Shown here in pieces: positions 327-62,573 of a stretch of DNA of 64,000 bases; position 1 is the stretch's first letter, and each line of letters begins with the position of its first letter. The notes under the pieces were generated by a model that was not told where the DNA came from, made no database searches, and saw only the letters and a program-made list of their open reading frames with translations. Source of the DNA: Candidatus Acidiferrales bacterium (GTDB lineage: Bacteria > Acidobacteriota > Terriglobia > Acidiferrales > UBA7541); NCBI GenBank assembly GCA_035631855.1, contig DASQHY010000107.1, positions 6,107 through 70,106 on the forward strand. Direction: 5' to 3'. The position numbers and the translations under genes were made by a program.

Positions 327-347
327 CGCGGACTCTGCAGCGTTATT

Positions 348-1694: not shown

Positions 1695-3067
1695 GGCTGC
1701 ACGTGTTTTTGAAGCCGGCGGTAAAGACCGCTACGGCTCAGGCCCAGGGCCTTGGCGGCCATGCTTACGTTTCCATCGTAGCGGGAGAGCGTTCGATGCA
1801 CGAGGTAGCGCTCGACTTCTTCCAGGCTCATCTCCTCGAGCCGCGGAGAACTGCTCGAAGCGGCGGAGCGGAGCCCCAGGTCTGAGGCGCGGACCTGCGA
1901 CCCCTGGGCCAGCAAGACGCCGCGCTCCACGGCATGGTCCAATTCACGCACATTGCCTGGCCAGGGGTGCTCCTGGAGAGCCTGGGTGGCCGCGGGATCG
2001 AAGCCGGCAATGCTCTTGCGGTAGCGCTGGGAATAATTCAGCAGGAAATGGTTGGCCAGCAGAGGAATATCTTCGCGGCGCTCGCGCAACGGCGGAAGAT
2101 GGATTTCGATGGTGTTCAGGCGGAAGAGCAGGTCCTGGCGGAAGCGTCCCCCTGCAATTTCGGCATTGACGTCCGCATTGGTGGCCGCGAGGACGCGCAC
2201 GTCCACGCGCCGCGTTTTTGATGAACCCACGCGCTCCATCTCACCAGTTTCCAGAACGCGGAGGAGTTTCGCTTGGAGGTTCATCGGCACGTTGGCGATT
2301 TCGTCCAGGAAAAGAGTGCTGGTGTCAGCGAGTTCGAAACGCCCCACGCGGTCGGCCCGCGCATCGGTAAAGGCGCCCTTCACATGCCCAAACAATTCGC
2401 TCTCGAAAACGCCTTCGGACAGCCCGCCCGCATTGACCGTAACCATCGGCTTGCTGCCGCGCTGCGACAATGCATGGAGCGTCTGCGCCACCACTTCTTT
2501 TCCCGTGCCGTGCTCTCCGGTAATCAGGACGTTGGCGTCGGACGGACCAATCTGCGCGATCAGCTCGAGGACCGGCTGCATGGCCGCGGATTCGGCGATG
2601 AGCGTGGGACGAGATTCCGCGCGGAGCAGGCGATTCTCCGCCTCCAGGCGGGAGGCATGACGCAAGGCGTTACGCAACTCAATCTGCGTGCGAATGATGG
2701 AGAGAAGCCGCGCATTCTCCCAGGGCTTCTGGATGAAATCCTTCGCGCCGCGGCGCATGGCTTCGACGGCCAGCTCCACGCTGCCCCACGCGGTCATCAC
2801 CACCACCGGCAGGGCCGCGTCCATCATCTGAATCCGCCCCAGCAGGTCCAGCCCTTCTTGCCCGGAGGTGGTATCGCGCGTGTAATTCAGGTCCATCAAA
2901 ACAGCGTCAAATTCGCGCGTCTCCAAGGCCGCAAGAATCTCGGCCGGTGAGGTGACCGCCTGAGTCTCGTAGCCTTCCCGCTTGAGCAGCAAGCGCAGCG
3001 CTTCGCGGATGTCGGGTTGATCGTCCGCCAGAAGCACCCGGAAATGATTGGAGTTCTGATTCTTCAT
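1691..3067 (-). CDS. sigma-54-dependent response regulator (NtrC family enhancer-binding protein)
   Basis: 458 aa. REC domain (LLADDQPD, LMDLNY, VVVMTAWG). AAA+ domain with GEHGTGKE Walker A, the ESELFGHVKGAFTDA sigma-54 contact loop and LFLDEI Walker B. C-terminal HTH (AAKALGLSRSGLYRRL). Confidence 0.92.
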   Translation of the reverse strand: MKNQNSNHFRVLLADDQPDIREALRLLLKREGYETQAVTSPAEILAALETREFDAVLMDLNYTRDTTSGQEGLDLLGRIQMMDAALPVVVMTAWGSVELAVEAMRRGAKDFIQKPWENARLLSIIRTQIELRNALRHASRLEAENRLLRAESRPTLIAESAAMQPVLELIAQIGPSDANVLITGEHGTGKEVVAQTLHALSQRGSKPMVTVNAGGLSEGVFESELFGHVKGAFTDARADRVGRFELADTSTLFLDEIANVPMNLQAKLLRVLETGEMERVGSSKTRRVDVRVLAATNADVNAEIAGGRFRQDLLFRLNTIEIHLPPLRERREDIPLLANHFLLNYSQRYRKSIAGFDPAATQALQEHPWPGNVRELDHAVERGVLLAQGSQVRASDLGLRSAASSSSPRLEEMSLEEVERYLVHRTLSRYDGNVSMAAKALGLSRSGLYRRLQKHVQP

Positions 3068-3100
3068 CGGAATTCGTTCGTCCTCGACGCCGCGCCCGGA

Positions 3101-3808
3101 TTATCGTGCGGCGGCGGCCGTCGAATCTCCGCTCACGATCCAGCCGTCTTTTTGTTGAATAATGCGGTGGCCATACGCGGCGTTTCGCTCCGAGTGGGTC
3201 ACCTGAATGATCGTGGTTCCCGCTTCGTTGAGCCGCTTGAACAATTGCATGATTTCATCCCCCTGCGCCGAGTGCAGGTTGCCGGTGGGCTCGTCGGCGA
3301 GGATCAGCTTGGGATTCAGGATCACCGCGCGCGCCACGGCCACAAGCTGCTGTTGTCCCCCGGAAAGCTGGCTGGGGAAAAGGTCTTTCTTGCCGACGAT
3401 CTGAAAGCGGTCGAGGGCATCGCACACCAGGCTGGTGCGTTCCTTGTGCGGCACATTCTTGTAGGAGAGCGGGATATCCAGGTTTTCGAACACGGTCAGG
3501 TTGTCGATCAGGTGATAGCTCTGGAAGACAAATCCGATATTGCGCTTGTGAAGTTCGTTGCGTTGCTTGACGTTGAGCTTGTGGACGGGCTGGTCGAGAA
3601 AGTAATACTCGCCGCTCCACGCTCCGTCGAGCATTCCGATGATGCTCAGCAGCGTGGACTTTCCCGCGCCAGACGGCCCCATGATGGTCACGAATTCCGC
3701 CGGGAGAATGTCCAGGCTGATCCGTCGCAAGACGAAGAACTTGCTTCCCCCCTGGTCGTAAGATTTTTCCAGCCCGCGCAGTTGAATCAATGGTTCCGCA
3801 GTTCCCAC
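3101..3808 (-). CDS. MacB/LolD-type ABC transporter ATP-binding protein
   Basis: Walker A GPSGAGKST, signature LSGGQQQ, Walker B LILADEPT, H-loop VTHS. The track ORF starts at TTG 3832. I prefer GTG 3808 because it is preceded by AAGGAG plus a 5-nt spacer. Confidence 0.9.
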   Translation of the reverse strand: MGTAEPLIQLRGLEKSYDQGGSKFFVLRRISLDILPAEFVTIMGPSGAGKSTLLSIIGMLDGAWSGEYYFLDQPVHKLNVKQRNELHKRNIGFVFQSYHLIDNLTVFENLDIPLSYKNVPHKERTSLVCDALDRFQIVGKKDLFPSQLSGGQQQLVAVARAVILNPKLILADEPTGNLHSAQGDEIMQLFKRLNEAGTTIIQVTHSERNAAYGHRIIQQKDGWIVSGDSTAAAAR

Positions 3809-3986
3809 ATTCGCTCCTTCGAACTTCAGCAATCAAGGTGTCTCGTTGGCACGAGTCGCCCCCTTGCGCTCTGACCAGAAGACAATTCTAACGCAAAATC
3901 ATCAGTTTCGGGGCCATCTGACATTGGGTGTAAGTCCTTAATTCTTAGCTGGTTAAAAGGCGATTATCATCGTCGAGGAGGGAGTA

Positions 3987-4025
3987 CTGTCCGAAAATGG
4001 GACGGCTCGTCGCGGTTTCGGACAG
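3987..4025 (-). other. 10-bp-stem hairpin in the 282-bp gap that splits the transporter cluster
   Basis: CTGTCCGAAA (3987-3996) pairs perfectly with TTTCGGACAG (4016-4025). The 19-nt loop contains GACG/CGTC. It lies about 65 nt downstream of the permease stop. There is no U-tract, so terminator function is uncertain. Confidence 0.3.
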
Positions 4026-4090
4026 CGATTCTGGAGGCTTCGAAGCACCACGAAAAGCTGCTATTGCGAGTCTAGCAGACATCAACCGCG

Positions 4091-6526
4091 CTATTCATAT
4101 CGCAGCGCGACCAGCGGGTCTACACGGGAGGCGCGCCGCGCGGGGATATAGCACGCCAATGCCGCAACCGCCGAGAGCAGGAGCGGAAGACCGACGAACG
4201 CCGCAAGGTCTGTTGACTCCACACCAAACAGGAGAGACGAAAGAGCCCGCGCCAGAGCGAAGGAGATCGGCAAGCCAATCCCCACTCCCAGCAGGGTAAT
4301 CAGCATGCCGTTCTTCAGGATGAGCCGCAAAATGTCGCGGGTGCGCGCGCCGAGGGCCATGCGAATTCCGATCTCGTGGTTGCGTTCGCCGACCGAATAC
4401 GACATGACGCCATAGACGCCTACTGATGCCAGCACCAGTGCAATCACTCCGAGCACGGCCATCATCACGGCGACGTACGCGATTCCGACCACGGACTCGC
4501 TGATCAAAATGTCCAGCGGCTTGACGTCAAAGATCGGCAGCTCCGCATCCAGCGCCGTGATTTGGCTGCGCGCAGCAGAGACAAACTGCGACGGGCTAGC
4601 CGATGTGCGCATGAACAGAGTGGTGTAAGAGCGCGGCGTCTGCCGGTAGGGCCGGTAGAGCGTCGGCACGTACTCTTTGTCAAGCCAGCCATAGTGGATG
4701 TCGCTCACCACGCCTACGATCGTCATCCACGGATTATCGGAGTCGTTGCGGCCCGCTTTGATTCGCTTGCCAAGCGGATTCTCGCCCGGGAAGTAACGCC
4801 GCACCATGCTTTCGCTGACGAGTGCGACCGGAAGCGTGTCCTGTCCATCGGCGTCGCTGAGTTCGCGGCCGTCCAGCAAGGAAATGTTGATCAGGCGGAT
4901 GAAGCCCGGACTGATGGTTTGCGTAATGGCGAGACGCTGTTCGCCTCGCTCCATGGTGGGGCGCCCTTCGATACTGAAGATGCTCCACGGCGTCCCTCCG
5001 CCGCCTTCGTAAGGGGCGTATGAGGCGATGGCTGCCGACTGGACGTTTGGGATTGCGGACAGCCGCTCGAGCGTCTTGTCAAAGAATGCCGCCCGGGCGT
5101 GCGCTTCTTTGTATTGCAACTCGGGCAGCGAAACTTTGAACGTCAAAAGCGTTTCGGGAGAAAAGGAATTGTTCACAGTCAGTAGCGCGCGGAATCCCTT
5201 TACCAAGAGTCCGGCGCCGAGCAGCAGAACCAGCGCGAGGGAGATCTCTGCAACCACCAATGTGCTGCGCATGCGGTGGCGCCCGCGTCCCGATGAGCTG
5301 CGGCCACTTTCCTTTAGCGTCTCGTTCAGCTTCGCGCGCGAGCTGAGCACCGCCGGCCCCAGGCCGGAAAGAACCCCGCTGACCAATGCAATCGCCAAAG
5401 TAAACAGAAAGGCCCCGGCATCCAGCTGGATCGTTTTCCATCCGGCGATGAACCTGGCGATGTCGGGAGGCATGTTGGCAAGAATAAGTTCGAGACTCGC
5501 GTTCGCAAACAGAAGTCCGACCGCAGCCCCGCCGGCGGAAAGCAGAACGCTCTCGGTCAAAAGCTGGCGGACGATGCGCCCGCGGCTGGCGCCCAGCGCG
5601 GCACGGATGGCCAACTCTCTCTGGCGTCCGGTGACGCGCGCGAACTGCACGTTGGCAACATTGGCGCAGGCAATCAGGAGCACAAACCCCACTGCACCCA
5701 TCAGAAGAATGGTGTACTGCCGCGTCAGGGCTCCCGTTGCGAATTCGGCGATGGGCATGACGCGCACATGCCAACCCCGACTTGTGTCCGGATACGCCTC
5801 ACTGAGGCGCGTCTCGATGGTGCGCATTTCCGAGCCAGCCTGCTTGATGGAAATGTTTGGATGGAGGCGCCCCAGTACCCAGACGCCTCGTGTGGCGCGG
5901 TTCGCTTTGTCTTTTGGTTGAAACGCCAGAGGCAACCAGACTTCTGCGGGCTGAGGGAAATCGAATCCTTTCCCCATCACGCCGACAATGGTGAACCCCC
6001 TTCCATCCACCTTGACGGTTTTGCCCACGATGTGTGGATCGGAGGCGTAACGGCGTTCCCACAGGCCGTAGCCCAAGATGATTTCCTGATCCTTGCCAGA
6101 CTGTTCCTCTTCGGGGAGAAACGTGCGGCCCAAGATAGGCTGGACCTGAAGGAAGTTGAAAAAATTGGACGAGACGTCCATGCCCTGGACCTTCTGCGGC
6201 TCTCCGTCGCCCGTCAGATTGACTTCGTCCCACTCGTATGCCGCCATCTGCTGGAACGAGCGGCTCTGCTCTTTCCAATCGAAATAGGTGGCGGGCGCGA
6301 CCGAATTCCTGTCAATGTTCAGTTCGGGACGCGTGTCCACGATGGCCACGAGGGACTCCGCGTGTTCAAAGGGGACCGGACGCACCAGGAATGCCTCGGC
6401 AAGGCTGAAAATGGCGGTGTTTGTTCCGATGCCGAGGGCCAAGGCGGCAATGGCGAGGAGCGTGACCCAGCGGTGCTTCCACAGCATGCGCACCGCGAAG
6501 CGGACGTCCTGAACCAATGTATTCAC
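4091..6526 (-). CDS. ADOP-type duplicated FtsX/MacB-like ABC permease
   Basis: 811 aa. N-terminus MNTLVQDVRFAVRML...LALGIGTNTAIFS. Two FtsX-like 4-TM modules, each preceded by a large periplasmic domain. C-terminus RVDPLVALRYE. GTG start preceded by AGGAGG. Confidence 0.9.
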   Translation of the reverse strand: MNTLVQDVRFAVRMLWKHRWVTLLAIAALALGIGTNTAIFSLAEAFLVRPVPFEHAESLVAIVDTRPELNIDRNSVAPATYFDWKEQSRSFQQMAAYEWDEVNLTGDGEPQKVQGMDVSSNFFNFLQVQPILGRTFLPEEEQSGKDQEIILGYGLWERRYASDPHIVGKTVKVDGRGFTIVGVMGKGFDFPQPAEVWLPLAFQPKDKANRATRGVWVLGRLHPNISIKQAGSEMRTIETRLSEAYPDTSRGWHVRVMPIAEFATGALTRQYTILLMGAVGFVLLIACANVANVQFARVTGRQRELAIRAALGASRGRIVRQLLTESVLLSAGGAAVGLLFANASLELILANMPPDIARFIAGWKTIQLDAGAFLFTLAIALVSGVLSGLGPAVLSSRAKLNETLKESGRSSSGRGRHRMRSTLVVAEISLALVLLLGAGLLVKGFRALLTVNNSFSPETLLTFKVSLPELQYKEAHARAAFFDKTLERLSAIPNVQSAAIASYAPYEGGGGTPWSIFSIEGRPTMERGEQRLAITQTISPGFIRLINISLLDGRELSDADGQDTLPVALVSESMVRRYFPGENPLGKRIKAGRNDSDNPWMTIVGVVSDIHYGWLDKEYVPTLYRPYRQTPRSYTTLFMRTSASPSQFVSAARSQITALDAELPIFDVKPLDILISESVVGIAYVAVMMAVLGVIALVLASVGVYGVMSYSVGERNHEIGIRMALGARTRDILRLILKNGMLITLLGVGIGLPISFALARALSSLLFGVESTDLAAFVGLPLLLSAVAALACYIPARRASRVDPLVALRYE

Positions 6527-6582
6527 GGAGTCCTCCTGCTACCGCAGGTCCCGCCAAACCGTTTTGATTGCGCCTCCTCAAA

Positions 6583-7293
6583 CTAGGCGCTGGCGTGGGA
6601 TTCCTTGCTCTCGTCCACCACGCGGCCGTCAAACATATGAATGGTGCGCTCGGCGAAGTTGGCGTAACGCTGGTCGTGCGTCACCATGCAGATGGTGGCC
6701 CCCCCGCGGTGCAGTTCGCGCAGTAATTCCATCACCGATTCGCCGTTCTTGGAGTCGAGGTTTCCGGTGGGCTCGTCGGCCATCAGGATGAGCGGATCGC
6801 CCACGAGCGCACGCGCCACGGCCACACGCTGCTGCTGACCTCCGGAGAGCTGCGAGGGATAGTGCTTCATGCGGTGCGCCATGCCCACGCGCTCCAGCGC
6901 CGCCTGCACTTTTTGCTTGCGCTCCGCGGAACCGGTTCCCCGGTAGGTGAGCGGCAACTCAACGTTCTCGTACACGGTAAGGTCGCCGATCAGGTTAAAC
7001 GCCTGGAAAATGAACCCGATCTCGCGGTTGCGGATGCGCGTGCGCTCGCTCAAGCTGAGGTTGGCCACCGGCTTGTTGTTGAGCCAGTAGTTGCCGTCGG
7101 TGGGCGAATCCAGCAGCCCCAGGATGGAGAGCAGAGTGGACTTGCCGCAACCGGAAGGCCCGGCAATCGAGATATACTCTCCTCTCTTGACTTCCAGATG
7201 GATTCCCGCCAGCGCGTGGGTCTCCACCTCATCGGTGTAGAACACTTTCGTCACCGCTTCGAGCCTGATCAGGTTTCCATTTGCGTCTGCCAT
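6583..7293 (-). CDS. MacB/LolD-type ABC transporter ATP-binding protein
   Basis: 236 aa. Walker A GPSGCGKST, LSGGQQQR, Walker B LILMADEPT, H-loop VTHD. ATG preceded by AGGAGA. Confidence 0.92.
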   Translation of the reverse strand: MADANGNLIRLEAVTKVFYTDEVETHALAGIHLEVKRGEYISIAGPSGCGKSTLLSILGLLDSPTDGNYWLNNKPVANLSLSERTRIRNREIGFIFQAFNLIGDLTVYENVELPLTYRGTGSAERKQKVQAALERVGMAHRMKHYPSQLSGGQQQRVAVARALVGDPLILMADEPTGNLDSKNGESVMELLRELHRGGATICMVTHDQRYANFAERTIHMFDGRVVDESKESHASA

Positions 7294-7349
7294 GTTTTCT
7301 CCTATTTATTTTGAATTGCCGATTGCCTTTTCTCCGCAAAACTTAGCGC

Positions 7350-9788
7350 CTATTCATACCGCAAAGCCACGATGGGGTCCACACGCAGGGCGCGCCGCGC
7401 GGGCAGATAGCAGGCCAGCGCCGCGATGCCGAGCAAGAACAGGGTGACTCCCGCAAAGGTCAGCGGATCGCGGGCGCTGATCCCGTATAACAGAGCACCC
7501 ATGGCGCGAGTTGCGGCGGCGGCCAGCACGAGGCCGATCGCCGCTCCCAGAAATGCCATGCGCATGCCCTGCCAGAGCAGAACGCGCACTACATCGCCGG
7601 GCTGCGCACCCAGCGCCATGCGGATGCCGATCTCGCGGGTGCGCTGCGCGACCAGAAACGCGATCACGCCGTAGATGCCGATTCCCGCCAAGACCAGAGC
7701 CTGCAAGCCGGCGACGCCCAGAAACTCCGAAGTCAGGCCATAGCTCGCGAAGGCGAACTCCATGTGCTGACGCAGCGTCCGCGTGTTGAAGACGGGCAGG
7801 TTGGGGTCCATCTCGTGCACCGTCTTCTGGATTGCCCCGAGCACTCCCGGCACGGCGGCCGCGGAGGCGGCACGCGCCTGCACGATCATGTCACCGGTGT
7901 AGGCTTGTTCGAGCGGGATATACACGTAGGATGTCGGCTCTTCGGTGAGCGTCTCCACTTTGACGTCGTGCACAACACCCACCACGCGCCGCCACTCGTC
8001 ACGAATGCGGATGCGATGCCCGAGAGGCTCTTGCCCGGGCCAGAAGCGGCGGGCAAACTGCTGGTTGACGATGGCCACGGCGGCCGAGTTCTTGTCGTCG
8101 TGCTCATCGAAATCGCGCCCGGCAATCGTCCGGATTCGCATGTTGGCAAAATAACCCGGCGAAATCCGCGCGTAATGAAAGGCCATGTCTTCATTCCGCT
8201 GCGGGGTATATCCTTCCACGTCCACCATCGTGTCCGCGCCGCCAATCACATGCAGCGGGAGATTCTCGGACAGGCTGGCCGACTCCACTCCAGGCAGGGC
8301 GCGCACCTGCTCGAGCAGTCTGCGGTAAAACGCGCGGCCCGCATCAGCGGTGTACCCATTGGCCGCGAGGTCCATGGCGCTAACCACTACATTGTCGGGG
8401 TCAAATCCCACGTCGATCCTTGTTGCGTAACCCTCGCTGCGCAGCACCAGGACTGCGCCGATGAGCAGCATCAGCGATAATGCGACTTGCGCCACCAGCA
8501 GGCCGCTGCGCAACCGCGAACGCGTAAACTTCCGGCTTCCGGTTTCCTCCTTCAACGCGTGGAGCAGGTCGGTCTTGGATGCCTGAAGCGCCGGGGCGAG
8601 ACCGAACACGACTCCGCTCAACACGGCGAGCAGGAGGGTAAACGCGAACACGCCCGCGTCGAAATTGGCGTCCAGCACGACGGGATAAGGAGCCGGGATC
8701 CTCAGATTCGCGAAATGCTGATTGGCCCACAAGCTCAGCGCGACCGATGCCGCGCCGCCCAGCAGAGACACCAGGACGGACTCAGTCAATAGCTGCCGGA
8801 CCAGCCTCCAGCGGCCCGCGCCGAGCGCTTGCCGAATGCCGATTTCCCGCACGCGCCCCGCGGCCCGCGCCAGCATCAGGTTGGCCACGTTCGAACATGC
8901 AATCAGCAGCACAATGCCGACAACCGCCATCACCACGGTAAGGACTGGAAACAGAATCGCCTGCCCCCCAAAGGGCGACCTGGACAGCGGCAGCAGTTCG
9001 GTCTTCTCGCGAATCTGCCGGTTCGGGAATTCCTTCAGCATTTGCGCGCCTACCACTCGCAGCGAGGCGCGCGCCTGCGCAAAACTTATTCCCGGCTTCA
9101 GGCGGCCCTGCAGAAGCAGCCAGCCGGAATCACGATGACCCAGAAAGTCCCAGGCGGGCACAACTTCGTGGATCATCATCACAGGGACATAGACGTCGAG
9201 CGTGAGTCCTACGGTGCTCCCGTGATAGGCCGGGTCGGTGACGCCGATCATCGTGAACGGCACGGTCCCGATGAAAAGCGTCTTGCCGATGACGTTGGGG
9301 TCGGCGCCCATGCGCGTGCTCCAGAAGCGGTGGCTCACCACGGCTACGGGATGCGCGCCCGGTGTGCGGTCGTCGTCCGGGGTGAGCAGCCGGCCCATCG
9401 CCGCGCGCACCCCGAGCATTTCGAAATTGTTACCGGTCATCGCTTCGCCCCACGTGCGCTCGGCTTTCTCCGCATAACGGACGCTGAGGGGCACCGGCGA
9501 AGAGCCTGCGAGGCTTTCAAAAACCTGGTTGCGGTCGCGCAGGTCCTTGTAATCGAGATACGAAAACGTCCAGGGGTTGCCTTCTACGGTGCGCTGCACG
9601 ACGACGACGAGCTGTTCCGCGGCGTGCACTCCCGGGAGCGGGCGCAGAATCATGCTCTTCAGCATGGTGAAGGTCGTCGTGTTCGCGCCGATGCCCAGCG
9701 CCAGAGTGAGCGCCGCAACCAACGCGAACCCGGGGCTTTTCGCCAGCATGCGCAACCCGAATCGAGCGTCCTGCCAGAGAGTTCTCAT
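7350..9788 (-). CDS. ADOP-type duplicated FtsX/MacB-like ABC permease
   Basis: 812 aa. MRTLWQDARFGLRML...[12 protein letters not shown] at the N-terminus, RVDPIVALRYE at the C-terminus. Paralog of the three neighbouring permeases. Confidence 0.9.
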   Translation of the reverse strand: MRTLWQDARFGLRMLAKSPGFALVAALTLALGIGANTTTFTMLKSMILRPLPGVHAAEQLVVVVQRTVEGNPWTFSYLDYKDLRDRNQVFESLAGSSPVPLSVRYAEKAERTWGEAMTGNNFEMLGVRAAMGRLLTPDDDRTPGAHPVAVVSHRFWSTRMGADPNVIGKTLFIGTVPFTMIGVTDPAYHGSTVGLTLDVYVPVMMIHEVVPAWDFLGHRDSGWLLLQGRLKPGISFAQARASLRVVGAQMLKEFPNRQIREKTELLPLSRSPFGGQAILFPVLTVVMAVVGIVLLIACSNVANLMLARAAGRVREIGIRQALGAGRWRLVRQLLTESVLVSLLGGAASVALSLWANQHFANLRIPAPYPVVLDANFDAGVFAFTLLLAVLSGVVFGLAPALQASKTDLLHALKEETGSRKFTRSRLRSGLLVAQVALSLMLLIGAVLVLRSEGYATRIDVGFDPDNVVVSAMDLAANGYTADAGRAFYRRLLEQVRALPGVESASLSENLPLHVIGGADTMVDVEGYTPQRNEDMAFHYARISPGYFANMRIRTIAGRDFDEHDDKNSAAVAIVNQQFARRFWPGQEPLGHRIRIRDEWRRVVGVVHDVKVETLTEEPTSYVYIPLEQAYTGDMIVQARAASAAAVPGVLGAIQKTVHEMDPNLPVFNTRTLRQHMEFAFASYGLTSEFLGVAGLQALVLAGIGIYGVIAFLVAQRTREIGIRMALGAQPGDVVRVLLWQGMRMAFLGAAIGLVLAAAATRAMGALLYGISARDPLTFAGVTLFLLGIAALACYLPARRALRVDPIVALRYE

Positions 9789-9797
9789 CGCTTCGCC

Positions 9798-12266
9798 TCA
9801 CTCATACCGCAAGGCCACAATCGGATCCACGCGCATGGCCCGCCGCGCCGGCACGAAGCATGCCAGCAGCGCGACCCCGGCCAGAATCACGGTGATGGTT
9901 GCAAAGGTCAGGGGATCGGTGGCGCTGATTCCAAACCACAGGCTGGCCAGCGTCCGCGTCAGTCCGATGGCCACAGCGATCCCGATCAGCAGTCCCAGCA
10001 GCGTCAGGCGCATTCCATGACCCACAATCAGCCGCAGCACATCGGAGGGCTGAGCACCAAGGGCCATGCGAATTCCAATTTCGTTGGTTCTCTGGGTGAC
10101 CGAGTAGGACATCAACCCGTAAATTCCCACGCCGGCAAGAGCCAATGCCACAGAAGAGAAGAGTCCCAGAAGCAACGTCAGAAACCGCGGACGTGATTGC
10201 GCCGTGGCGAGCACTTCGTCCATGGTGCGGACATTGGCGAGGGGCAAGGCGGGGTCAATCCCGGCGATCGCTTGCCGGGCGGCACCCGCCAGGGACCCAG
10301 GGTCGCCGCTCGTCCTCAAAACAAAGTTCGGACTGCGGAGTCCAAATCCGAATGTATCCATCTGGCGGACGGCAAAGTAGAGTTCCGTCCCAGCCGGCTG
10401 GTCGAGCCCCGCGTTTTTTACATCGGCGACAACGCCGATGACCGTGAACCATGGGGTGTTCGGTCCTCCGGGCCGCACGCGCCGGCCCACCGGGCTTTCC
10501 TTTCCCCAGAAGTGGCGCGCCATCGCCTGGTTCACAATCGCCGCCGGCGGTGAGCCTCCACCGTCGCGCTGATCAAAGAACCGCCCCTCGATCAGCGGGA
10601 TGCCCATGGTTTCGAAGTAGCGGTCACCCACGAATTGCCAGTAATCCACGTTTTGAATGGGCGAGTCCGGTCCTTTTGGAAGGCCTTCGATCTCGGTGTC
10701 GTTGGCATTGAGCCGCCGGGCCGGGGGCAGCCCGGACATCATCGTCACGCCCTTCACTCCAGGAAGCGCGGAAAGGCGCTCCTGGGCGCGAATCCAGAAT
10801 TGCAAGGCACTCTGCGTATTTGGATAGAGGGCTTGCACCAGCGACGCACGCATGGTCAGAAGGCCGGAGGAAACAAAACCCGGATTCACTTGAAGGAGTT
10901 TCCAGAAGCCGCGCACCATCAATCCCGAGCCCACCAAAAGCACCAGGGCCAGGGCCATCTCCATCACCACCAGCGAGCGGCGGAACCATTGCGCCACCGA
11001 CGTTGCCGTCGAGCGCAGCTCCGAAGCCTTCAGCGAGTCGCTCAGGTTGCGCGTGACCACCTGAGCGAGCGGCGTAAGCCCGAAGAAAATCCCGGTCCCC
11101 GCACAAACAATCAGAGTGAACAGCAGGACTCTTCCATTGACGGCAATCTCGGAAACTCGGGGAATGAACCCGGCATTCGTCGTGACGATCAGATGCAGCC
11201 CGCCATAGGCCAGCAGCAACCCAAGGCCGCCTCCCGCGAGCGAAAGCAGCATGCCTTCGGTGACAAATTGCTTTGCGAGGTTGCCCACCGACGCGCCGAT
11301 AGCGGTCCGCACAGCGATTTCGCGCTGCCGCGCCTCGGCGCGCGCCAGCAGGAGGTTTGCCACATTCACGCAGGCGATCAGCAGAACGAAAAAGACAGCG
11401 CCGAGCAGCATCAGCATCGCCGGACGCACCGTGCGCACGACTTCATCCTGCAATGGAAACATCACCACGGGATGATTGGCGGGACTCAGCGCGTGGTTCT
11501 TCTGCGTGTCGCCTTCGCCCCAGTAGCGCACGAGCTGCGCCATTTCGTCGTTTGCCTGCAACAGAGAAACGCCGGGCTTCAACCGCGCCAGGAGGTAGAG
11601 ATAGTGGCTCCCGCGCCCGCCGGGATTGGCAGGGTCCAACTGCAGCGGCACCCAGATCTCCGGCGGATCCACTTCGCCCGGCGGAAACTGGAAGCCCGCG
11701 CGCATGACGCCGATGATCGTGCACTTCACGCCGTCCACAAGAGTCTCCCGTCCCACGATGGACGGATCGCTGCCAAACGCCCTGCGCCACAACCCCTCGG
11801 AAATCAGCGCAACCTGCGGCACGCCCGGAGCATCGTCTTGCGGAGAAATGTTTCTTCCCAGCAGAGGCGATGCGCCGATGGAATCGAGCAGCCCTCCGGT
11901 CACATAGGATTCCGTGGCGCGGACGGGAGAGGTGGTGCCCATCAGATTGGCGACCCCATTCACCCACCCGTCCAAGGTCTGCCAGGAGTGGGCTTCACGC
12001 TTCATGTCCAGATACTCCGGCGCGGACACCCAGAAGCGCCGCAATCCCCCTCCCGGAAATTTCGGGAACTCGGTATAGATGCGGACAAGCTTTTCCGGAT
12101 TTGCGTAGGGAAGCGGCTTGAATACGACGCCGTAAACCACGCTGAAGATAGCGGTGTTGGCGCCGATGCCGAGGGCCAGAGTGAGCACTGCCACCAGCGT
12201 GAATACGGCATTCTTCCCCATCATCCGCAAGCCGAATCGAACGTTTTGCCAGATCGTTCGCATCAA
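9798..12266 (-). CDS. ADOP-type duplicated FtsX/MacB-like ABC permease
   Basis: 822 aa. MMRTIWQNVRFGLRMM...[13 protein letters not shown] at the N-terminus, RVDPIVALRYE at the C-terminus. Only 9 nt separate it from the downstream permease. Confidence 0.9.
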   Translation of the reverse strand: MMRTIWQNVRFGLRMMGKNAVFTLVAVLTLALGIGANTAIFSVVYGVVFKPLPYANPEKLVRIYTEFPKFPGGGLRRFWVSAPEYLDMKREAHSWQTLDGWVNGVANLMGTTSPVRATESYVTGGLLDSIGASPLLGRNISPQDDAPGVPQVALISEGLWRRAFGSDPSIVGRETLVDGVKCTIIGVMRAGFQFPPGEVDPPEIWVPLQLDPANPGGRGSHYLYLLARLKPGVSLLQANDEMAQLVRYWGEGDTQKNHALSPANHPVVMFPLQDEVVRTVRPAMLMLLGAVFFVLLIACVNVANLLLARAEARQREIAVRTAIGASVGNLAKQFVTEGMLLSLAGGGLGLLLAYGGLHLIVTTNAGFIPRVSEIAVNGRVLLFTLIVCAGTGIFFGLTPLAQVVTRNLSDSLKASELRSTATSVAQWFRRSLVVMEMALALVLLVGSGLMVRGFWKLLQVNPGFVSSGLLTMRASLVQALYPNTQSALQFWIRAQERLSALPGVKGVTMMSGLPPARRLNANDTEIEGLPKGPDSPIQNVDYWQFVGDRYFETMGIPLIEGRFFDQRDGGGSPPAAIVNQAMARHFWGKESPVGRRVRPGGPNTPWFTVIGVVADVKNAGLDQPAGTELYFAVRQMDTFGFGLRSPNFVLRTSGDPGSLAGAARQAIAGIDPALPLANVRTMDEVLATAQSRPRFLTLLLGLFSSVALALAGVGIYGLMSYSVTQRTNEIGIRMALGAQPSDVLRLIVGHGMRLTLLGLLIGIAVAIGLTRTLASLWFGISATDPLTFATITVILAGVALLACFVPARRAMRVDPIVALRYE

Positions 12267-12272
12267 GCTCTC

Positions 12273-14711
12273 CTACTCATAGCGCAGCGCCACCACAGGA
12301 TCGATGCGCGCCGCGCGCTGGGCCGGTACCCAAGCCGCCAGCAGCGCCACCGCGCACAACACGGCGGGCACCGCCACAAAAATTGTTGAGTCCAGGGCGC
12401 GTACCTGGAACAGCAAGCTGGCGAGGAAGCGCGTAACCGCGAGCGCGCCGGCCACCCCCAGCACCAGACCAATCGCCGCGACGCGAAAAGTCTGGCCCAC
12501 CACCATTTGCACGATTGCTCCGCGCCGCGCGCCCAGCGCCATGCGTATGCCGATCTCACGCGTACGCTGGGCCACCAGGTAGGACACCACGCCATAAATT
12601 CCCAGCGCGGAAAGCGCCAGCGCTGTGGCAGCGAAAAATGCAAAGATGATCATGCTCATGCGGCGCAACGCGGAACTTTCCCAGGCCGCTTCTTCCATGG
12701 GGAGTTCCCGGAAAATTGCCTGGTCTTTGTCCACCGTCCAGATCGCCTGCCGCAGGGAGCCTGCCAGAGCCATTGGTTGCTGGCCCGTACGCGCGGTGAA
12801 GGCAATCAGAGGAAACCCGTCTTGCGTAAATGGGCGATAGACCTCGGGATGCGCCGCCTCAGCTGCGCCGAAATGTTTTACGTCGCCTACAACTCCGACG
12901 ATCAGCCAAGGCGCCTTGCCGAATTCATTCGGATCTGGCGTGACAAGCCTGCCCACCGCGTCTTGATTGGCGAAGTAACGCCGGGCCAGCGTGGCGTTGA
13001 TGATGCACACCGGCGGGTTCTGCGCGGTGTCGGCGCCGGTAAAACTCCGCCCGCGGAGGATGGGAATCTGCATGGTGCGGAAATAATCGTCGCTGGCGAT
13101 CCGATAGTCGGCGCTGGGCCACTGCGACACCGCCACGGGCGCCGCGTCAGGGGTGGTAAATGAGACCGTTCCCCAGAATCCACTCAGCGGCAGGAAGTTC
13201 ACGGCTGCTGCGGATTCCACGCCCGGGAGTTTGTGCATTTCGGCCAGCACCTCGCGGACGAAGCGGATGCGATCCGGATCGGTCTTGTACCTGCTCCGCG
13301 GCAGAAGCACCTGCGCGGTCATGACGTGGCCGGGATTAAAGCCGAGGCTGGTGTTCTGCAGCCGCACAAAACTCTTGATCATCAGGCCAGCGGAGGTCAG
13401 CAAGACCAACGCGAGAGAAACCTGCGCCACCACCAGTCCCGAGCGCACGAGCCGGCTGCCGCCACTTCCAATGGTGCGGCCACCGCTTTCTTTCAGGCCA
13501 GGTTCCGGCGAAGCACCGGAGACTTGCAGCGCGGGCACAGCACCAAACACGATTCCGGTCACCACCGCAAGAAGCACCGCGAAGCCGAGCACAACGGAGT
13601 CCACGGGAATCTCTTCCACCAGTGGAATGTTAAGGTTGGCGATGTTGTTGGGAAACAGGTGTACTAAGAAGCGGGTCGCCCATACGGTGAGCATCAATCC
13701 GATCAGGCAGCCCGCGAGCGACGTCATCACGCTCTCGGTGAGCAACTGCCGAATGAGGCGGCCGCGGGTCGCACCCAGCGCAACTCGAATCGCCATTTCC
13801 TTGCGCCGCGCGGCGGCGCGCGCCAGCAGAAGGTTGGCGACATTGGCGCACACGATCAACAGCACGAATCCCACCGCGCCCGTGAGCGCCAGCAAAGGCG
13901 GGCGAATCCCGCCCACGAACAAATCACGCACCGGCTGAAACCCGACGCCCCAGCCTTTGTCGGTATCGGGATACTGTTGGCCAAGCCGCTCGGAGAGTTG
14001 CTCGATGTCGGCTTCGGCTTGCTTCATCGTAAGGCCGTCCTTGAGCCGCGCCACCACGCGCAGGAAAGTCGCGGTGCGGTTCGCGGCCGCATCAGGGGGC
14101 ATGACAAGCGGCGCCCACAGATCGTTTAGCTCGCCGGGAAAATTGAAACCGCGCGGCATCACGCCGATCACGGTGTAAGGCATATCATTCAGCGTGATGG
14201 TTTTGCCCAGAACATTGCGATCCTCACCGAACCTGCGCACCCACAGTTTGTTCGTGAGCACGACCACATGGTTGTGGCCCGCCTGCTCTTCCTCCTGCGT
14301 GAACATCCGCCCCATCGTCGGCTCCACGCCGAGCAGGTGCATGAAATTGGAAGAAATGCTCCAGGAAATCAGCAACTCGGGCTCGCCCAAACCCGTCAGC
14401 GTGTAGCTCTGGTCGGTGGCCGCGGCCATCTCCGAGAAAACGTGGTTCTCGCGGCGCCAGTCTTCATACTTGCCCGGCGTCACCAGATCCTTTGGGTCGT
14501 TACGCAGGAGGTTGCGCGGCCACAGCATCACCAAACGGCCGGGGTTTTGCATTCCCAGGGGCTGGAGCAGCACCTGCTTCACCACGCCAAAAATGGCGGT
14601 GTTAGCGCCGATGCCGAGCGCCAGGGTGAGCACTGCCACCAGCGCAAAGCCGGGGCTCTTCACCAGCATCCGCAAGCCGAATCGAATGTCTTGCCAGATC
14701 GCTCGCATCAA
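12273..14711 (-). CDS. ADOP-type duplicated FtsX/MacB-like ABC permease
   Basis: 812 aa. [16 protein letters not shown]...[13 protein letters not shown] at the N-terminus, [11 protein letters not shown] at the C-terminus. Only 6 nt separate it from the next permease. Confidence 0.9.
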
Positions 14712-14771
14712 ACTGTCCCCGAATCCGCCGAACAGATCTCTAAGACGAAAACTTGGAGGCCAAACAGCGCA

Positions 14772-15941
14772 TCATGCGACTGCCAGCGTCAGCAGCGTCA
14801 CATCGTCGTTCAGCCGGCCGCCACAATGAGTACGCAAACCATCCATCAGAATGTTCCGGAGCATTTCCGCGCTGCCGGCGCGATTTTGCAAAAGCGTTGC
14901 CAGGAATTGTCCATCGCCAAAGGTTTCCCCATGAGAGTTCTCGGCCTCCAGTAAACCGTCGGTGCACAGCACCAAACGGTCTCCGCTTGCCATTTGGACG
15001 CATCCTTGTTCGAAATGCCGCCCGTCAAATTCTCCCAGCACCGGCCCGCCTTCCGATAGGCGCATCCACGTGCCGTCGGTCCTCACCAGGATCGGCGCGG
15101 GATGTCCGGCGCAGGTATAGGTAAGCAGGCGTTCCTGCGCCGCGAGGTGCGCGTAAAAAAAACTGACAAACCGCCCATGGACAACACGGTCGCAAACCGC
15201 CGCATTCACTTTTCCCGTGAGTTCGTGAGGCGGATGATTGGCGGAGGCCAGCGCGCGCACGGTGGCCTGCACGTGAGAGGCGAGCAGCGCAGCGGGCACC
15301 CCTTTGCCCACGGCATCGGCGATGCAGAATCCCACGCCTGCGCTCCCGAAAGGCAGAACGTCAAAGGCGTCTCCGCTCACGGCGCCCAGCGGCTGCCACT
15401 CGGCGGAGAACTCGTAGCCATCGAGCTGCGGCAGTCCGCGCAGAACCAATTCGCTTTGAATTTCGCGCGCCAGATTCAGCTCGCGGGTCATGGCCGGCTC
15501 GTTGATTCGCCACGACCGCCGCTTTTCCAGCGGGCGCTGGAGTTTGGCGAGCAAGCGCGCGTTCTCCCAGGGTTTTTCGATGTAGTCGCATGCGCCGCGC
15601 TGCATGGCCTTCACCGCGAGGTCGGTGCTCCCCCACGCCGTCATCACCACGATGGGCAGCGTGTAGTCCATGGCCTGAATCTGGTCGAGCAGATCCAGCC
15701 CTTCGTCCCCGGAAGTGGTGTCGCGGGCGTAATTCAGGTCCATCAAAAGCAGATCGAAGGAGCGCTCCCGGAGAGCTTCCAGAACCGCCGCGGGGGAACT
15801 TGCCGCTTCGGTCTGATGGCCGTGGGCCTTGAGGAGAAGGCGCAGTGCCTGGACCACGTCCGGCTGATCGTCGGCGATGAGCGTGCGCGGAGCCGCCTTT
15901 TCACTGCTGGTCCACGCCGGGTGTTGGACAACTGCGCTCAT
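14772..15941 (-). CDS. response regulator with PP2C/SpoIIE-type serine phosphatase output domain (RsbU-like)
   Basis: 389 aa. N-terminal REC (LIADDQPD, LMDLNYARDTTSG, VVMTAWG). C-terminal PP2C motifs (VSGDAFDV, IADAVGKG, CTDGLLEA, NDDVTLLTL). Confidence 0.88.
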   Translation of the reverse strand: MSAVVQHPAWTSSEKAAPRTLIADDQPDVVQALRLLLKAHGHQTEAASSPAAVLEALRERSFDLLLMDLNYARDTTSGDEGLDLLDQIQAMDYTLPIVVMTAWGSTDLAVKAMQRGACDYIEKPWENARLLAKLQRPLEKRRSWRINEPAMTRELNLAREIQSELVLRGLPQLDGYEFSAEWQPLGAVSGDAFDVLPFGSAGVGFCIADAVGKGVPAALLASHVQATVRALASANHPPHELTGKVNAAVCDRVVHGRFVSFFYAHLAAQERLLTYTCAGHPAPILVRTDGTWMRLSEGGPVLGEFDGRHFEQGCVQMASGDRLVLCTDGLLEAENSHGETFGDGQFLATLLQNRAGSAEMLRNILMDGLRTHCGGRLNDDVTLLTLAVA

Positions 15942-15970
15942 GCGCGTGCTCTGCCCTTTCTCGCGCTTGC

Positions 15971-17227
15971 TTACTTCAAACGGATGCGGTCCACGTTATC
16001 CCACTGCGACATGTCGGAAAGAATGACTTTGTCGCCGACCTGCAGCCCGGATACCACTTCAATGGTGTTCACCGAGGCGCGGCCCAGCTTGACATTGACG
16101 CGCGTCGCTTCGGCTCCGTCAGAGGTCAGCTTGAAGATTCCTATGGTGCTGTCGGCCTGGCCGTGCACCGGGCGTCCCACGTACAAAACATCCTTCAGGT
16201 TCTCGAGCACAATGGTGCCGTCCACGCTCAAGTCCGGCCGCGCGCCCGGCGGCAAGGGACCATCGAGACTCACGTCCACAGGAACCGTGCCGTTTACAGG
16301 CGCCGCGGCAATGCGCGTCACGTGCCCTTCCACAATGCCGTTTCTCGTGTCAATGGACGCCTTTTGCCCGATAGCCACATCTTTCGCCTGTGTTTCTGCA
16401 ATTTGGATTTGAGCCTTCAGGAGTTTGGGGTCGGAGACACGCGCCAAGTTGGTGCCAGGAGTTACCTGCTGGCCCACTTCCACGGCCACCGCTTGGAGTA
16501 CGCCGTTTATTCCCGCGCGCACGTGCAACGCGTCGAGTTGGCTCTTGCGGAGGGCGTAGAGGGCCTTCTGCGTGTCCACGCGGGCCTTTTGTGCATCCAG
16601 CCGGGCCTTCGCGGAATCGCTGGCGATCCGCGTGCGCTCTTCTTCCAGCTTGATGCGAATGGCAAGCGAATCCGCCCGGACTTTTGATAGCTTGGATGTC
16701 ACTTCCGAGGTGAGCCCTTCCTTGCGAAGCTCCTCATCCACCTCATGTTGCAACTTGGCCTGTTCGTAGTCGCTGCGGACCGCGGCCTCATTCGCCTTCT
16801 GGCTGGCCAACTCGCTGTCCACCTGAACCTTCAAGTTGGCGTAGTCGGCCTCCGCCGCTTTCAACTGGTATTCGGCATCGAGAGCATCCCGTTGCAGTTG
16901 CGGGTCGCTCAGCTCGAGCACGACGGAGTCAGGGCGAACCGTGTCCCCCGAACGCAAAACGATGCGATCCACGCGAGCCTGCGATTGCGCCGGGATCCAG
17001 CGAATGTCTTCTGGAACAAGTGTCCCCAGTCCGCGAACGTCGCGGACCATGGGCCCGCGGCGCACCGTGTCTTTCCAGGTAGTGGCGTCGTCCACGCTCG
17101 GGGCGGCCGGCCGCAGCCGCGTGAGTCCGTAGGTCACTCCGCCCAGCATCAGGACTACCGCGATGACCGCAATGACCATGCGGCGCGTCTTTTGCGCTTT
17201 GACGCTTGCTGGTCTTTGAATGTCCAT
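15971..17227 (-). CDS. HlyD/MacA-type periplasmic adaptor (membrane fusion protein)
   Basis: 418 aa. N-terminal TM anchor (MVIAVIAVVLMLGGVTYGL), a long coiled-coil hairpin, and barrel-sandwich and beta-barrel segments typical of efflux adaptors. First gene of the co-oriented run. Confidence 0.88.
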   Translation of the reverse strand: MDIQRPASVKAQKTRRMVIAVIAVVLMLGGVTYGLTRLRPAAPSVDDATTWKDTVRRGPMVRDVRGLGTLVPEDIRWIPAQSQARVDRIVLRSGDTVRPDSVVLELSDPQLQRDALDAEYQLKAAEADYANLKVQVDSELASQKANEAAVRSDYEQAKLQHEVDEELRKEGLTSEVTSKLSKVRADSLAIRIKLEEERTRIASDSAKARLDAQKARVDTQKALYALRKSQLDALHVRAGINGVLQAVAVEVGQQVTPGTNLARVSDPKLLKAQIQIAETQAKDVAIGQKASIDTRNGIVEGHVTRIAAAPVNGTVPVDVSLDGPLPPGARPDLSVDGTIVLENLKDVLYVGRPVHGQADSTIGIFKLTSDGAEATRVNVKLGRASVNTIEVVSGLQVGDKVILSDMSQWDNVDRIRLK

Positions 17228-17256
17228 AAACCTACCCTCGATTCAGCCATCTGTAG

Positions 17257-17272
17257 CGCAACTGGCAGGCCT
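17257..17272 (-). promoter_or_regulatory. candidate sigma-54 -24/-12 promoter upstream of the adaptor gene
   Basis: The minus strand reads AGGCCT-GCCAG-TTGCG. GG and GC have the canonical 12-nt register of TGGCAC-N5-TTGCW, and 7 of 11 consensus positions match. The GC lies about 30 nt upstream of ATG 17227, with GAGGGT as a possible SD in between. Confidence 0.3.
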
Positions 17273-17347
17273 CCAGCGGTTCGCCGTAAGGTCTTTTTTG
17301 ACAGCAGGTTACATGATGGAACTGGTTCGCATTGTACATCGAAATGG

Positions 17348-17378
17348 CCGCTTGTGGGATTGCTCGTCCCAAAAGCGG
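17348..17378. promoter_or_regulatory. nested inverted repeat, possible enhancer (UAS) site
   Basis: CCGCTT-G-TGGGA-TTGCTCG-TCCCA-AA-AAGCGG. It sits 80-105 bp upstream of the candidate -24/-12 element in the divergent intergenic region. Confidence 0.25.
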
Positions 17379-17527
17379 ACATCAGATTCGCCCGCTGCCT
17401 TTATCACCGCTCACCACGCGACGAAAAACACAGACAAGGCGCAACAGTTCCTAGTGCGTAAGAAGATTTGGAACGGCTTTGTCGCGATGATAGAGTCGGC
17501 TGCGGCGAACAGGATCTGCAAGCCGTA

Positions 17528-62570: not shown

Positions 62571-62573
62571 CCA

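Follow-up and report, generated by a model that had tools for sequence, protein, structure and literature searches.

In Acidobacteriota, a phylum dominant in soil, few paralogous protein families are as large as that of the Acidobacterial Duplicated Orphan Permease (ADOP) proteins. We know of no function and no described energy source for the family, and in the original TIGRFAM description, to our knowledge, ATPase genes are essentially never adjacent to the permease genes; that description is said to go back to Ward and colleagues in 2009. What might power these permeases is a question raised by a stretch of 64,000 nucleotides from a Candidatus Acidiferrales bacterium (GenBank assembly GCA_035631855.1, contig DASQHY010000107.1, positions 6,107 to 70,106; hereafter the window), in which four ADOP genes lie in one run with two ATP-binding cassette (ABC) ATPase genes and the gene for a single adaptor. 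The analysis presented here finds that this association is a real operon common in the phylum, an under-described efflux-type machine rather than a one-off. The operon probably specifies a MacAB-TolC-like type VII ABC machine for envelope efflux or defence, expressed as one sigma-54 operon under the control of its own two-component system.

The term orphan as used here follows that description and wording in a single paper (PMC3914696), and it describes a trait rather than a criterion of the hidden Markov model (HMM) family. The same 2014 paper mentions briefly an ADOP cluster of Psychroflexus that is associated with further transporter genes, of which some contain ATP-binding regions (PMC3914696). 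In the searchable literature we found no description of the conserved gene chassis, of the two orthogroups of ATPases, of the regulatory elements or of the contrast in evolutionary rate between engine and permeases.

Gene content and conservation of the operon

By the list of open reading frames (ORFs), the operon occupies positions 348-17227 of the window as an unbroken run of minus-strand genes, from the adaptor to a histidine kinase. The adaptor (15971-17227), an HlyD/MacA-like membrane fusion protein of 418 residues with an N-terminal transmembrane (TM) anchor, is followed by an accessory gene (14772-15941) for a response regulator that joins a receiver (REC) domain to a SpoIIE-type PP2C phosphatase (Pfam Response_reg and SpoIIE). 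Three permease genes then fill what is referred to here as slot A, namely ADOP1 (12273-14711; 812 residues, or 811 in the NCBI annotation, which begins at the second Met), ADOP2 (9798-12266; 822 residues) and ADOP3 (7350-9788; 812 residues). ATPase-1 (6583-7293; 236 residues) precedes the single permease of slot B, ADOP4 (4091-6526; 811 residues), which is followed in turn by ATPase-2 (3101-3808; 235 residues), both ATPases matching the Pfam family ABC_tran. The run closes with a sigma-54-dependent response regulator (1691-3067), bearing REC, AAA+ sigma-54 activator and HTH_8 domains by Pfam and NCBIfam, and the histidine kinase (348-1694), in which Pfam and hydropathy place two TM helices, a PAS domain and a HATPase_c domain. 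Measured on the ORF coordinates, the gaps from the adaptor to ATPase-2 are 29, 60, 6, 9, 56, 56 and 282 bp; ATPase-2 and the sigma-54 regulator are separated by 33 bp, and the regulator and kinase genes overlap by 4 bp. An earlier, sequence-only reading of this DNA had described the eight genes between 3101 and 17227, and their coordinates, strand and gap sizes were reproduced in full. It had stopped short of the true extent of the cluster, overlooking the sigma-54 regulator, the kinase, and the promoter-like element and enhancer-like dyad discussed below.

The conservation of this gene set was examined in an ADOP-centred scan with one genome per species, which returned 80 loci with a best identity of only 38-47% that were annotated using the window proteins; most of the related loci are from Acidobacteriota, and individual loci are cited here by their L numbers. 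In this sample, 67 of the 222 full-length ADOPs, distributed over 18 of the 80 loci, share a directon with a window-type ATPase, and this count is a lower bound, as 20 further arrays of at least three ADOPs leave the sampled DNA. Searches centred independently on ATPase-1 and on the adaptor agree with this result, and relatives of ATPase-1 at 83% identity or higher amount to more than 120 clusters at the 90% level. The gene order was followed through the relatives, and the adjacency of ATPases and adaptor to the permeases, first noted in the window, is kept in many of them and is not due to chance.

The most compact version of the operon is seen in Candidatus Acidoferrum contigs (L084-86), which encode in order an adaptor (417 residues), an ADOP (834), an ATPase (235), an ADOP (811), an ATPase (233), a sigma-54 response regulator (458) and a histidine kinase (445). 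An identical seven-gene order surrounds the adaptor of L092-96, an adaptor that is indexed in 144 blocks of the collection. This seven-gene chassis of adaptor, ADOP(A), ATPase-1, ADOP(B), ATPase-2, sigma-54 regulator and kinase recurs across Acidobacteriota, and the window carries an expanded form of it, with three ADOPs in slot A instead of one and with the REC-PP2C gene added. There is nothing exceptional about the locus, as operons of the base form, with two ADOPs, two ATPases and one adaptor, are widespread. Recurring partner modules are also evident, in that the adaptor is found beside ATPase-1, REC-PP2C beside ATPase-2, and the sigma-54 regulator beside the kinase. Variants include L046, with a gene order as in the window; L088, a near relative in which the left flank is exactly that of the window; L081-83, in which two inverted genes are inserted ahead of ATPase-2; and L006, L028 and L031, in which the adaptor and ATPase-1 precede a series of ADOPs that is ended by ATPase-2 in L006 and L028. 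The accessory REC-PP2C gene is present in L006, L010, L037, L038, L041, L043, L081 (and its companions L082 and L083) and L088, and absent from L046, L084-86 and L092-96.

A 4:2:1 ratio of permeases, ATPases and adaptor had been proposed to mean that the permeases share their ATPases and adaptor. Gene counts agree with this in L006, L028 and L020, where four to at least seven ADOPs accompany one ATPase-1/ATPase-2 pair and one adaptor, but the widespread base form is 2:2:1. Because the base operon has an ATPase of its own after each ADOP, 1:1 pairing of permease and ATPase is as plausible as free sharing.

Two side observations concern the arrays of the relatives. AlkD-like DNA alkylation repair genes (PF08713) lie inside ADOP/ATPase arrays in L010 (11838-12635) and L038 (6397-7443), a placement that may point to some connection with genotoxic natural products. 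In L013 and L038, both from Microflora Danica metagenome-assembled genomes (MAGs), the ORFs of ADOPs, regulator and kinase occur in fragments within the arrays, and this could be due to pseudogenisation or to frameshift errors of long-read sequencing.

Family, fold and divergence of the permeases

The four permeases are true members of the ADOP family. Against TIGR03434, with its curated cutoff of 622.3 bits, ADOP1, ADOP2, ADOP3 and ADOP4 score 970, 928, 900 and 938 bits, respectively, each covering profile positions 1-803. The two FtsX-type modules that had been assigned to each protein are likewise borne out, as every chain contains two stretches of MacB_PCD (PF12704) and two of FtsX (PF02687), an internal duplication in which the N- and C-terminal halves remain 25-28% identical. 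The N- and C-terminal motifs previously described as common to all four are present in their alignment. A Candidatus Acidoferrales MAG encodes a protein, P0121, with 100% identity to ADOP1.

The AlphaFold2 (AF2) model of ADOP1 (pLDDT 85.9, pTM 0.80) displays eight TM helices, an elbow helix, two coupling helices and two periplasmic domains. Hydropathy and the model together place these elements in the order elbow helix, TM1, periplasmic domain 1, TM2, coupling helix, TM3 and TM4 in the first half, continuing through a disordered linker to TM5, periplasmic domain 2, TM6, coupling helix, TM7 and TM8 in the second. An ADOP is on this model a direct 4+4 fusion of two MacB-like halves. The best full-length match in the PDB is YbbP (9GE6_A; E 6.7e-20, TM-score 0.42, 13% identity), while half-length matches are found to MacB, Spr0695, LolC/E, HrtB and BceB, with a Foldseek probability of 1.0 for each half of ADOP1 against MacB, Spr0695 and LolC/E. 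At the sequence level, ADOP matches in the PDB are to the MacB chains of 5NIK and 5LIL, and the LolC/E models are matched weakly in the NCBIfam scan.

Because the four ADOPs are only 36-40% identical to one another and the two ATPases 42%, the paralogues in the window are old and not the outcome of recent duplication. Their divergence is unevenly distributed, identity being 27-28% in the periplasmic domains, whereas the TM, coupling and terminal segments range from 45 to 83%. ADOP4 is the sole window permease with syntenic orthologues, being 61% and 57% identical to the ADOP located between the two ATPases in L084 and L046, respectively.

Members of the family were also encountered on contigs labelled Verrucomicrobiota (Limisphaerales and Chthoniobacterales) and Gemmatimonadaceae (L001, L029, L036, L048 and L061), of which L036 contains an ADOP array with an ATPase-2-type gene. 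Unless these contigs have been mis-binned, the ADOP family is not confined to Acidobacteriota.

A conserved engine with changeable permeases

A comparison between the window and its relatives L081 and L084 separates the genes of the operon by rate. Listed for L081 and L084, respectively, identities are 89 and 84% for ATPase-1, 83% in each case for ATPase-2, 86 and 82% for the sigma-54 regulator, 76 and 70% for the kinase, and 70 and 72% for the adaptor; REC-PP2C is 62% identical in L081 and lacking in L084. The ADOPs in corresponding positions reach only 32-41%, with the exception of ADOP4 against L084. Chassis proteins are in this way 62-89% identical between relatives, whereas permeases of the same slot are 32-61% identical. 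Because of these identities and of the low identity in the periplasmic domains, the engine is seen to be conserved, and the permease heads are replaced or diverge quickly, mostly in their periplasm-facing parts. Since the periplasmic domains diverge and the permeases turn over fast while ATPases, adaptor and regulators are conserved, the permease paralogues most likely represent alternative substrate specificities mounted on a common engine.

Both ATPases belong to the MacB/LolD/FtsE subtype of ABC_tran and retain intact Walker A, Q-loop, signature, Walker B and H-loop motifs. They represent two orthogroups, with 72-73% identity within each type and 42% between types. ATPase-1, whose closest solved relatives are Spr0694 (5XU1_A), MJ0796, LolD and the nucleotide-binding domain (NBD) of MacB, is 75-89% identical across the related loci and, like other ATPases of type 1, retains the canonical D-loop GNLD and signature-flank residues. 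ATPase-2 is 68-84% identical across related loci and shows lineage-wide changes relative to type 1, including a D-loop altered from GNLD to GNLH and a signature altered from LSGGQQQR to LSGGQQQL, both of which are found in its orthologues in L006, L010, L022, L028, L032, L036-38, L041, L046, L055, L081 and L084. Two engines are conceivable from these features. Gene order suggests ATPase-1 and ATPase-2 homodimers paired 1:1 with the two slots, and the multi-ADOP arrays together with the conserved D-loop asymmetry suggest a shared ATPase-1/ATPase-2 heterodimer.

The adaptor is matched by HlyD_3 and HlyD_D23 of Pfam above their cutoffs, carries one TM helix at residues 17-35 by hydropathy, and is 68-72% identical to the adaptors of related operons. 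Its AF2 model contains a long hairpin made up of helices 109-169 and 175-235 (61 residues each; pLDDT 84-91). The sequence-only reading had found no outer-membrane factor (OMF) and had left two options, a TolC borrowed from a distant locus or action without one. The whole 64-kb window indeed encodes no OMF, and likewise no further ADOP and no PadR gene. The first of the two options is favoured, as an OEP/TolC-like gene directly follows ATPase-2 in L028 and another lies between the last ADOP and the sigma-54 regulator in L091. Upstream of the adaptor, no OMF was found in L006 or L046, where the neighbouring ORFs scanned encode BipA, DUF5666 and a TonB-type barrel, and the ORF at this position in L031 has no Pfam match.

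Orphan permeases and the possible reach of the engine

The permeases of the window had been declared not to be orphans. This holds for the locus itself, where ATPases lie 56 and 282 bp from ADOP genes, but the label remains valid for two other settings. PadR-ADOP units, in which one or two (rarely three) ADOP genes follow a PadR repressor of about 110 residues, are frequent in the 80-locus sample, and no ATPase or adaptor was found within 10 kb of them; solo ADOP genes also occur. These PadR-linked orphans resemble the window permeases in protein family and in their elbow, coupling-helix and C-terminal motifs, and form no separate clade in the sample; they differ from the window in the presence of PadR and in having neither an ATPase nor an adaptor gene within 10 kb. 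When 209 ADOPs were clustered, the arrangement was star-like, and engine-linked and orphan genes were not separated. All ADOP classes, whether orphan, PadR-linked, in arrays or engine-linked, keep the N-terminal elbow, both coupling-helix motifs and the C-terminal motif, and because these docking motifs are kept in all classes, orphan ADOPs are seemingly competent to dock an ATPase supplied in trans.

A 66%-identical relative of ADOP1 in L087 (10001-12436) is a lone gene beside an extracytoplasmic function (ECF) sigma factor gene, with no ATPase within 10 kb, and ADOP1 relatives at 62-64% identity are located in ATPase-containing arrays (L089 and L091). As the L087 relative stands alone, closely related permeases exist both inside and outside engine operons. 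A further relative of ADOP1 (59%) belongs to L090 (JGI contig Ga0506529_0001110), where orphan ADOPs are found among PadR genes and a BlaI/BlaR1-like pair (Penicillinase_R and Peptidase_M56), interleaved with genes for an S8 peptidase and a protein of the metallo-beta-lactamase fold.

These observations bear on a broader proposal, which is possible but rather less likely than not to be correct in full, that one engine serves the entire ADOP pool. The chassis would supply an obligate ATPase-1/ATPase-2 heterodimer matched to the asymmetric, fused permease and, with its single adaptor, would also power PadR-linked and solo orphans elsewhere in the genome in trans, and permease cassettes would shuttle between the slots and orphan sites. 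The arrays of four to at least seven ADOPs with just a single copy of either ATPase type, the two frequently placed at different ends of the array (L006 and L028), speak for such an arrangement, as do the separate conserved ATPase orthogroups with the Asp-to-His change in the D-loop and the signature-flank changes of type 2, the docking motifs and intermingled clustering of all ADOP classes, and the placement of close ADOP1 relatives both alone and in arrays. It is at odds with the catalytic motifs, which are complete in both ATPases so that neither site is obviously degenerate, and with the canonical order ADOP-ATPase1-ADOP-ATPase2, which suggests 1:1 pairs. Several loci have only ATPase-1 near their ADOPs, though most of these end at the edge of a contig or flank.

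Regulation

The efflux or defence machine preferred here would be placed under sigma-54 control, and the regulatory genes are maintained with the operon. The sigma-54 regulator is 73-86% identical to the regulators in the same position in L010, L032, L038, L081 and L084, and the kinase 65-76% identical to those of L010, L081 and L084. The two TM helices of the kinase (residues 15-33 and 42-60 by hydropathy) are joined by a loop of about 8 residues, and because this loop is so short the kinase lacks a periplasmic sensor domain. The REC domain of REC-PP2C is 64% identical over 127 residues to that of the sigma-54 regulator, a likeness between the two receivers which suggests that one kinase may feed two outputs, the regulator and the phosphatase; among the neighbouring genes there is none for a STAS protein or an anti-sigma target of the phosphatase.

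On the 5' side of the operon, an alignment of the sequences upstream of the adaptor from nine diverse loci was poor overall, yet a GG and a TGC were invariant at the GG-N10-GC spacing of a sigma-54-type -24/-12 promoter, 25-50 nt before the adaptor start codon. In the window this promoter-like element is AGGCCTGCCAGTTGCG (17257-17272, minus strand), located 45 nt ahead of the start of the adaptor gene. The element was recognised only through the cross-locus alignment; the background density of GG-N9-TGC is 0.0019 per nt. A search with TGGCAC-N5-TTGCW allowing up to two mismatches gave 21 matches compared to 35 expected, which is no enrichment, and missed the element at 17257-17272. Sigma-70 promoter-like sites in positions 1-17700 of the window numbered 0 compared to 3.3 expected from shuffles, and terminators were not in excess, counts that are uninformative. 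An Rfam search of 3000-17600 returned no match.

Further upstream lies an inverted repeat with 16-nt arms, TGTCCG-N5-GGGAC-N6-TCCCA-N5-CGG (17348-17381, minus strand), a candidate enhancer or upstream activating sequence for the sigma-54 response regulator. Its consensus across loci, TGTYCG-N5-GSGAC-N4-8-TCCCA-N4-6-CGG, has 17 invariant columns in the alignment, and its centre precedes the GG of the -24 element by 90-96 nt in all eight Terriglobia-type lineages (8/8). Applied as a regular expression to the window and 96 loci, the dyad matched only upstream of adaptor or ATPase-2 genes of this operon type; the exact 15-mers GTCCCATTTTCGGAC and GTCCNNWTTTNGGAC were too strict to recover the motif family.

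A second copy of the dyad with the same architecture, an inverted repeat with 18-nt arms, is found within the 282-bp gap upstream of ATPase-2 (3991-4024, minus strand), and a homologous dyad precedes ATPase-2 in L081-83 (L081 13435-13468). About 92 nt from its centre, a spacing as at the adaptor promoter, is the GG of a weak second -24/-12 candidate, TGGCCCCGAAACTGA (3901-3917, minus strand), in which TGGC...AACTG is kept in the window and L081. Because the canonical -12 GC is absent, this is only a weak candidate for a second sigma-54 promoter that may drive ATPase-2, the regulator and the kinase. The hairpin at 3987-4025 was also considered as an RNA element or attenuator (window fold z -4.2) and rejected, as its L081 homologue folds differently; it is regarded as the second dyad copy, of the protein-binding type.

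Judged on its sequence, the locus combines the features of an NtrC-type system, namely a REC/AAA+/HTH_8 regulator, a kinase, a -24/-12-like element and an upstream dyad. The layout, with regulator and kinase at the 3' end and promoter-like element and dyad at the 5' end, looks like that expected of an autoregulated sigma-54 operon. Two more pairs of histidine kinase and sigma-54 response regulator are encoded in the window (48272-51513, plus strand, and 60720-63932, minus strand); many sigma-54 two-component systems are in use in the source organism.

Comparison with known systems

The closest functional model is MacAB-TolC, the type VII ABC system of Escherichia coli and A. actinomycetemcomitans (PDB 5NIK and 5LIL). 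Each ADOP half corresponds to a MacB subunit in its four TM helices and periplasmic core domain, and the MacB-like coupling-helix and C-terminal motifs, the ATPase subtype, the co-encoded HlyD-type adaptor with its long hairpin and the TolC-like OMF encoded in cis in two relatives of the window extend the likeness. MacB, however, is a homodimer with an N-terminally fused NBD, whereas the operon described here specifies fused 8-TM permeases and separate ATPases, two ATPase paralogues, several permease paralogues and sigma-54 control, with no OMF in the window. The MacB equivalog model NF007826 gives scores of 104-125 bits, far below its cutoff of 966.

Bce systems of Firmicutes occur as multiple paralogues and serve in defence against peptide antibiotics. 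Like the present operon, BceAB-BceRS includes an FtsX-fold permease, an ATPase made as a separate chain and a kinase whose two TM helices have hardly any extracellular loop between them. BceB, by contrast, crosses the membrane with 10 TM helices and has a single extracellular domain, the regulator is of the OmpR type, and adaptor and OMF are lacking; the likeness is one of functional analogy only.

The Gram-positive MacAB-like systems Spr0693-0694-0695 and YknXYZ, together with DarBCD and DevBCA-HgdD, likewise encode a separate ATPase, an FtsX-fold permease and an HlyD-type adaptor together, but each with one permease gene instead of an array. They bring up the alternative that the operon, like DarBCD, DevBCA-HgdD or PvdRT-OpmQ, is a dedicated exporter for one of the cell's own products, for example a peptide, glycolipid or siderophore, and serves no defence. 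The export of endogenous products is common for MacB-type pumps with adaptors (reviewed in PMC5985334). DarD is in addition the top-scoring NCBIfam model for both ATPases, and weak matches are given by the adaptor to DarC and by ADOP1, ADOP2 and ADOP4 to DarB. The scores nevertheless fall far below the cutoffs (233-261 compared to 375 for DarD, 46 to 450 for DarC and at most 36 to 700 for DarB), and the proteins are not DarBCD. A dedicated product exporter is moreover argued against because neither the window nor its relatives have biosynthetic genes next to the operon, and the flanks vary: the gene upstream of the cluster is a divergent amino-acid permease, and housekeeping genes change by lineage between an amino-acid permease with pyridoxal phosphate (PLP) enzymes and genes of tryptophan biosynthesis, nucleosides or sugars. 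Fast permease turnover and many paralogues also better suit varied external substrates, and this explanation is considered unlikely.

Similarly improbable is a mechanotransmission device unconnected to efflux, of the LolCDE, YbbAP-TesA or FtsEX type, which would extract lipids or lipoproteins or activate a periplasmic enzyme without a duct through the outer membrane. It draws on the closest full-length solved fold, that of E. coli YbbP (PDB 9GE6-9GE8), a fused permease extracting hydrophobic compounds and the only solved type VII permease that imitates a dimer by internal duplication and associates with two copies of an ATPase encoded apart from it (PMC12646458), as well as on the missing OMF gene of the window and the weak LolC/E matches. 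YbbP differs from the ADOPs, however, in having 10 TM helices with an extra linker pair and TesA as its partner (PMC12646458), in contrast to the eight TM helices and two full periplasmic domains of an ADOP, and the YbbAP system has no adaptor or OMF. With the YbbA model, which has a cutoff of 336, the window ATPases reach 207 and 167 bits, and they are not YbbA equivalogs. The conserved long-hairpin HlyD-type adaptor at the head of the operon, the OEP genes within two related clusters and the lack of any TesA-, EnvC- or LolA-like partner gene further oppose such a device.

The operon is not a new kind of machine but a fused-dimer, multi-permease variant of the MacAB-type pumps, a system that works like MacAB-TolC and is neither a MacB equivalog nor YbbAP nor DarBCD.

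Proposed mechanism

In the proposed MacAB-TolC-like machine, a single ADOP chain would replace the MacB dimer and offer its two coupling helices to a dimer of the separate ATPases. ATP-driven mechanotransmission would then move the periplasmic domains, and the long-hairpin adaptor would presumably link the engaged permease to an outer-membrane channel encoded elsewhere, so that substrates would be expelled from the periplasm or the outer leaflet, with different ADOPs bringing different specificities. A tripartite duct of this kind is favoured because of the OEP genes in the L028 and L091 clusters and the long hairpin of the adaptor. The kinase probably senses the status of the membrane or of the transporter, and its signal would turn the operon on by way of the sigma-54 regulator, which would act from the dyad sites. 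Defence against xenobiotics is hinted at by circumstantial features, namely the PadR and BlaI/BlaR1-type genes beside orphan ADOPs, the AlkD-like genes, the many paralogues and the fast-changing periplasmic domains.

Several points weigh against this proposal. The window is devoid of an OMF gene, and the adaptor scores 93.6 bits against TIGR01730, below the cutoff of 94.9, has no match in a sequence search of the PDB, contains no strict RLS tip motif and is modelled poorly outside its hairpin, the mean pLDDT of the AF2 model being 57. The promoter-like element departs from the strict sigma-54 consensus, and the ATPase that follows each ADOP in the base operon is equally compatible with dedicated 1:1 pairs. 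The defensive role has neighbourhood hints as its sole basis, and the searchable literature on ADOP consists of passing mentions only, with no substrate, transcript or interaction data.

The possibility that the ATPases and adaptor serve some other transporter and that the ADOPs of the locus are functional orphans in a coincidental neighbourhood finds some footing in the original family description and in the common solo and PadR-linked ADOPs with no ATPase within 10 kb, but it is very improbable given that the cluster contains no other permease for the ATPases to serve, that the gene set recurs in many lineages, that the intergenic gaps of the window cluster, apart from the one before ATPase-2, are 6-60 bp, and that the ATPase subtype matches the MacB/Lol/FtsE-type partners of FtsX-fold permeases.

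Significance

A conserved operon that brings together two types of ATPase, an adaptor and a sigma-54 switch, and in some relatives an outer-membrane channel as well, turns a family labelled as orphan and of unknown function into a testable model, in which the periplasmic domains are the likely determinants of specificity. The slow evolution of the engine and the fast turnover of the permeases suggest chemical defence in an arms race, with relevance to soil microbial ecology and to intrinsic antibiotic resistance. If a single engine does serve the wider pool of ADOPs, the family would represent a diversifiable envelope defence of one motor and many heads in a highly abundant phylum of soil bacteria.

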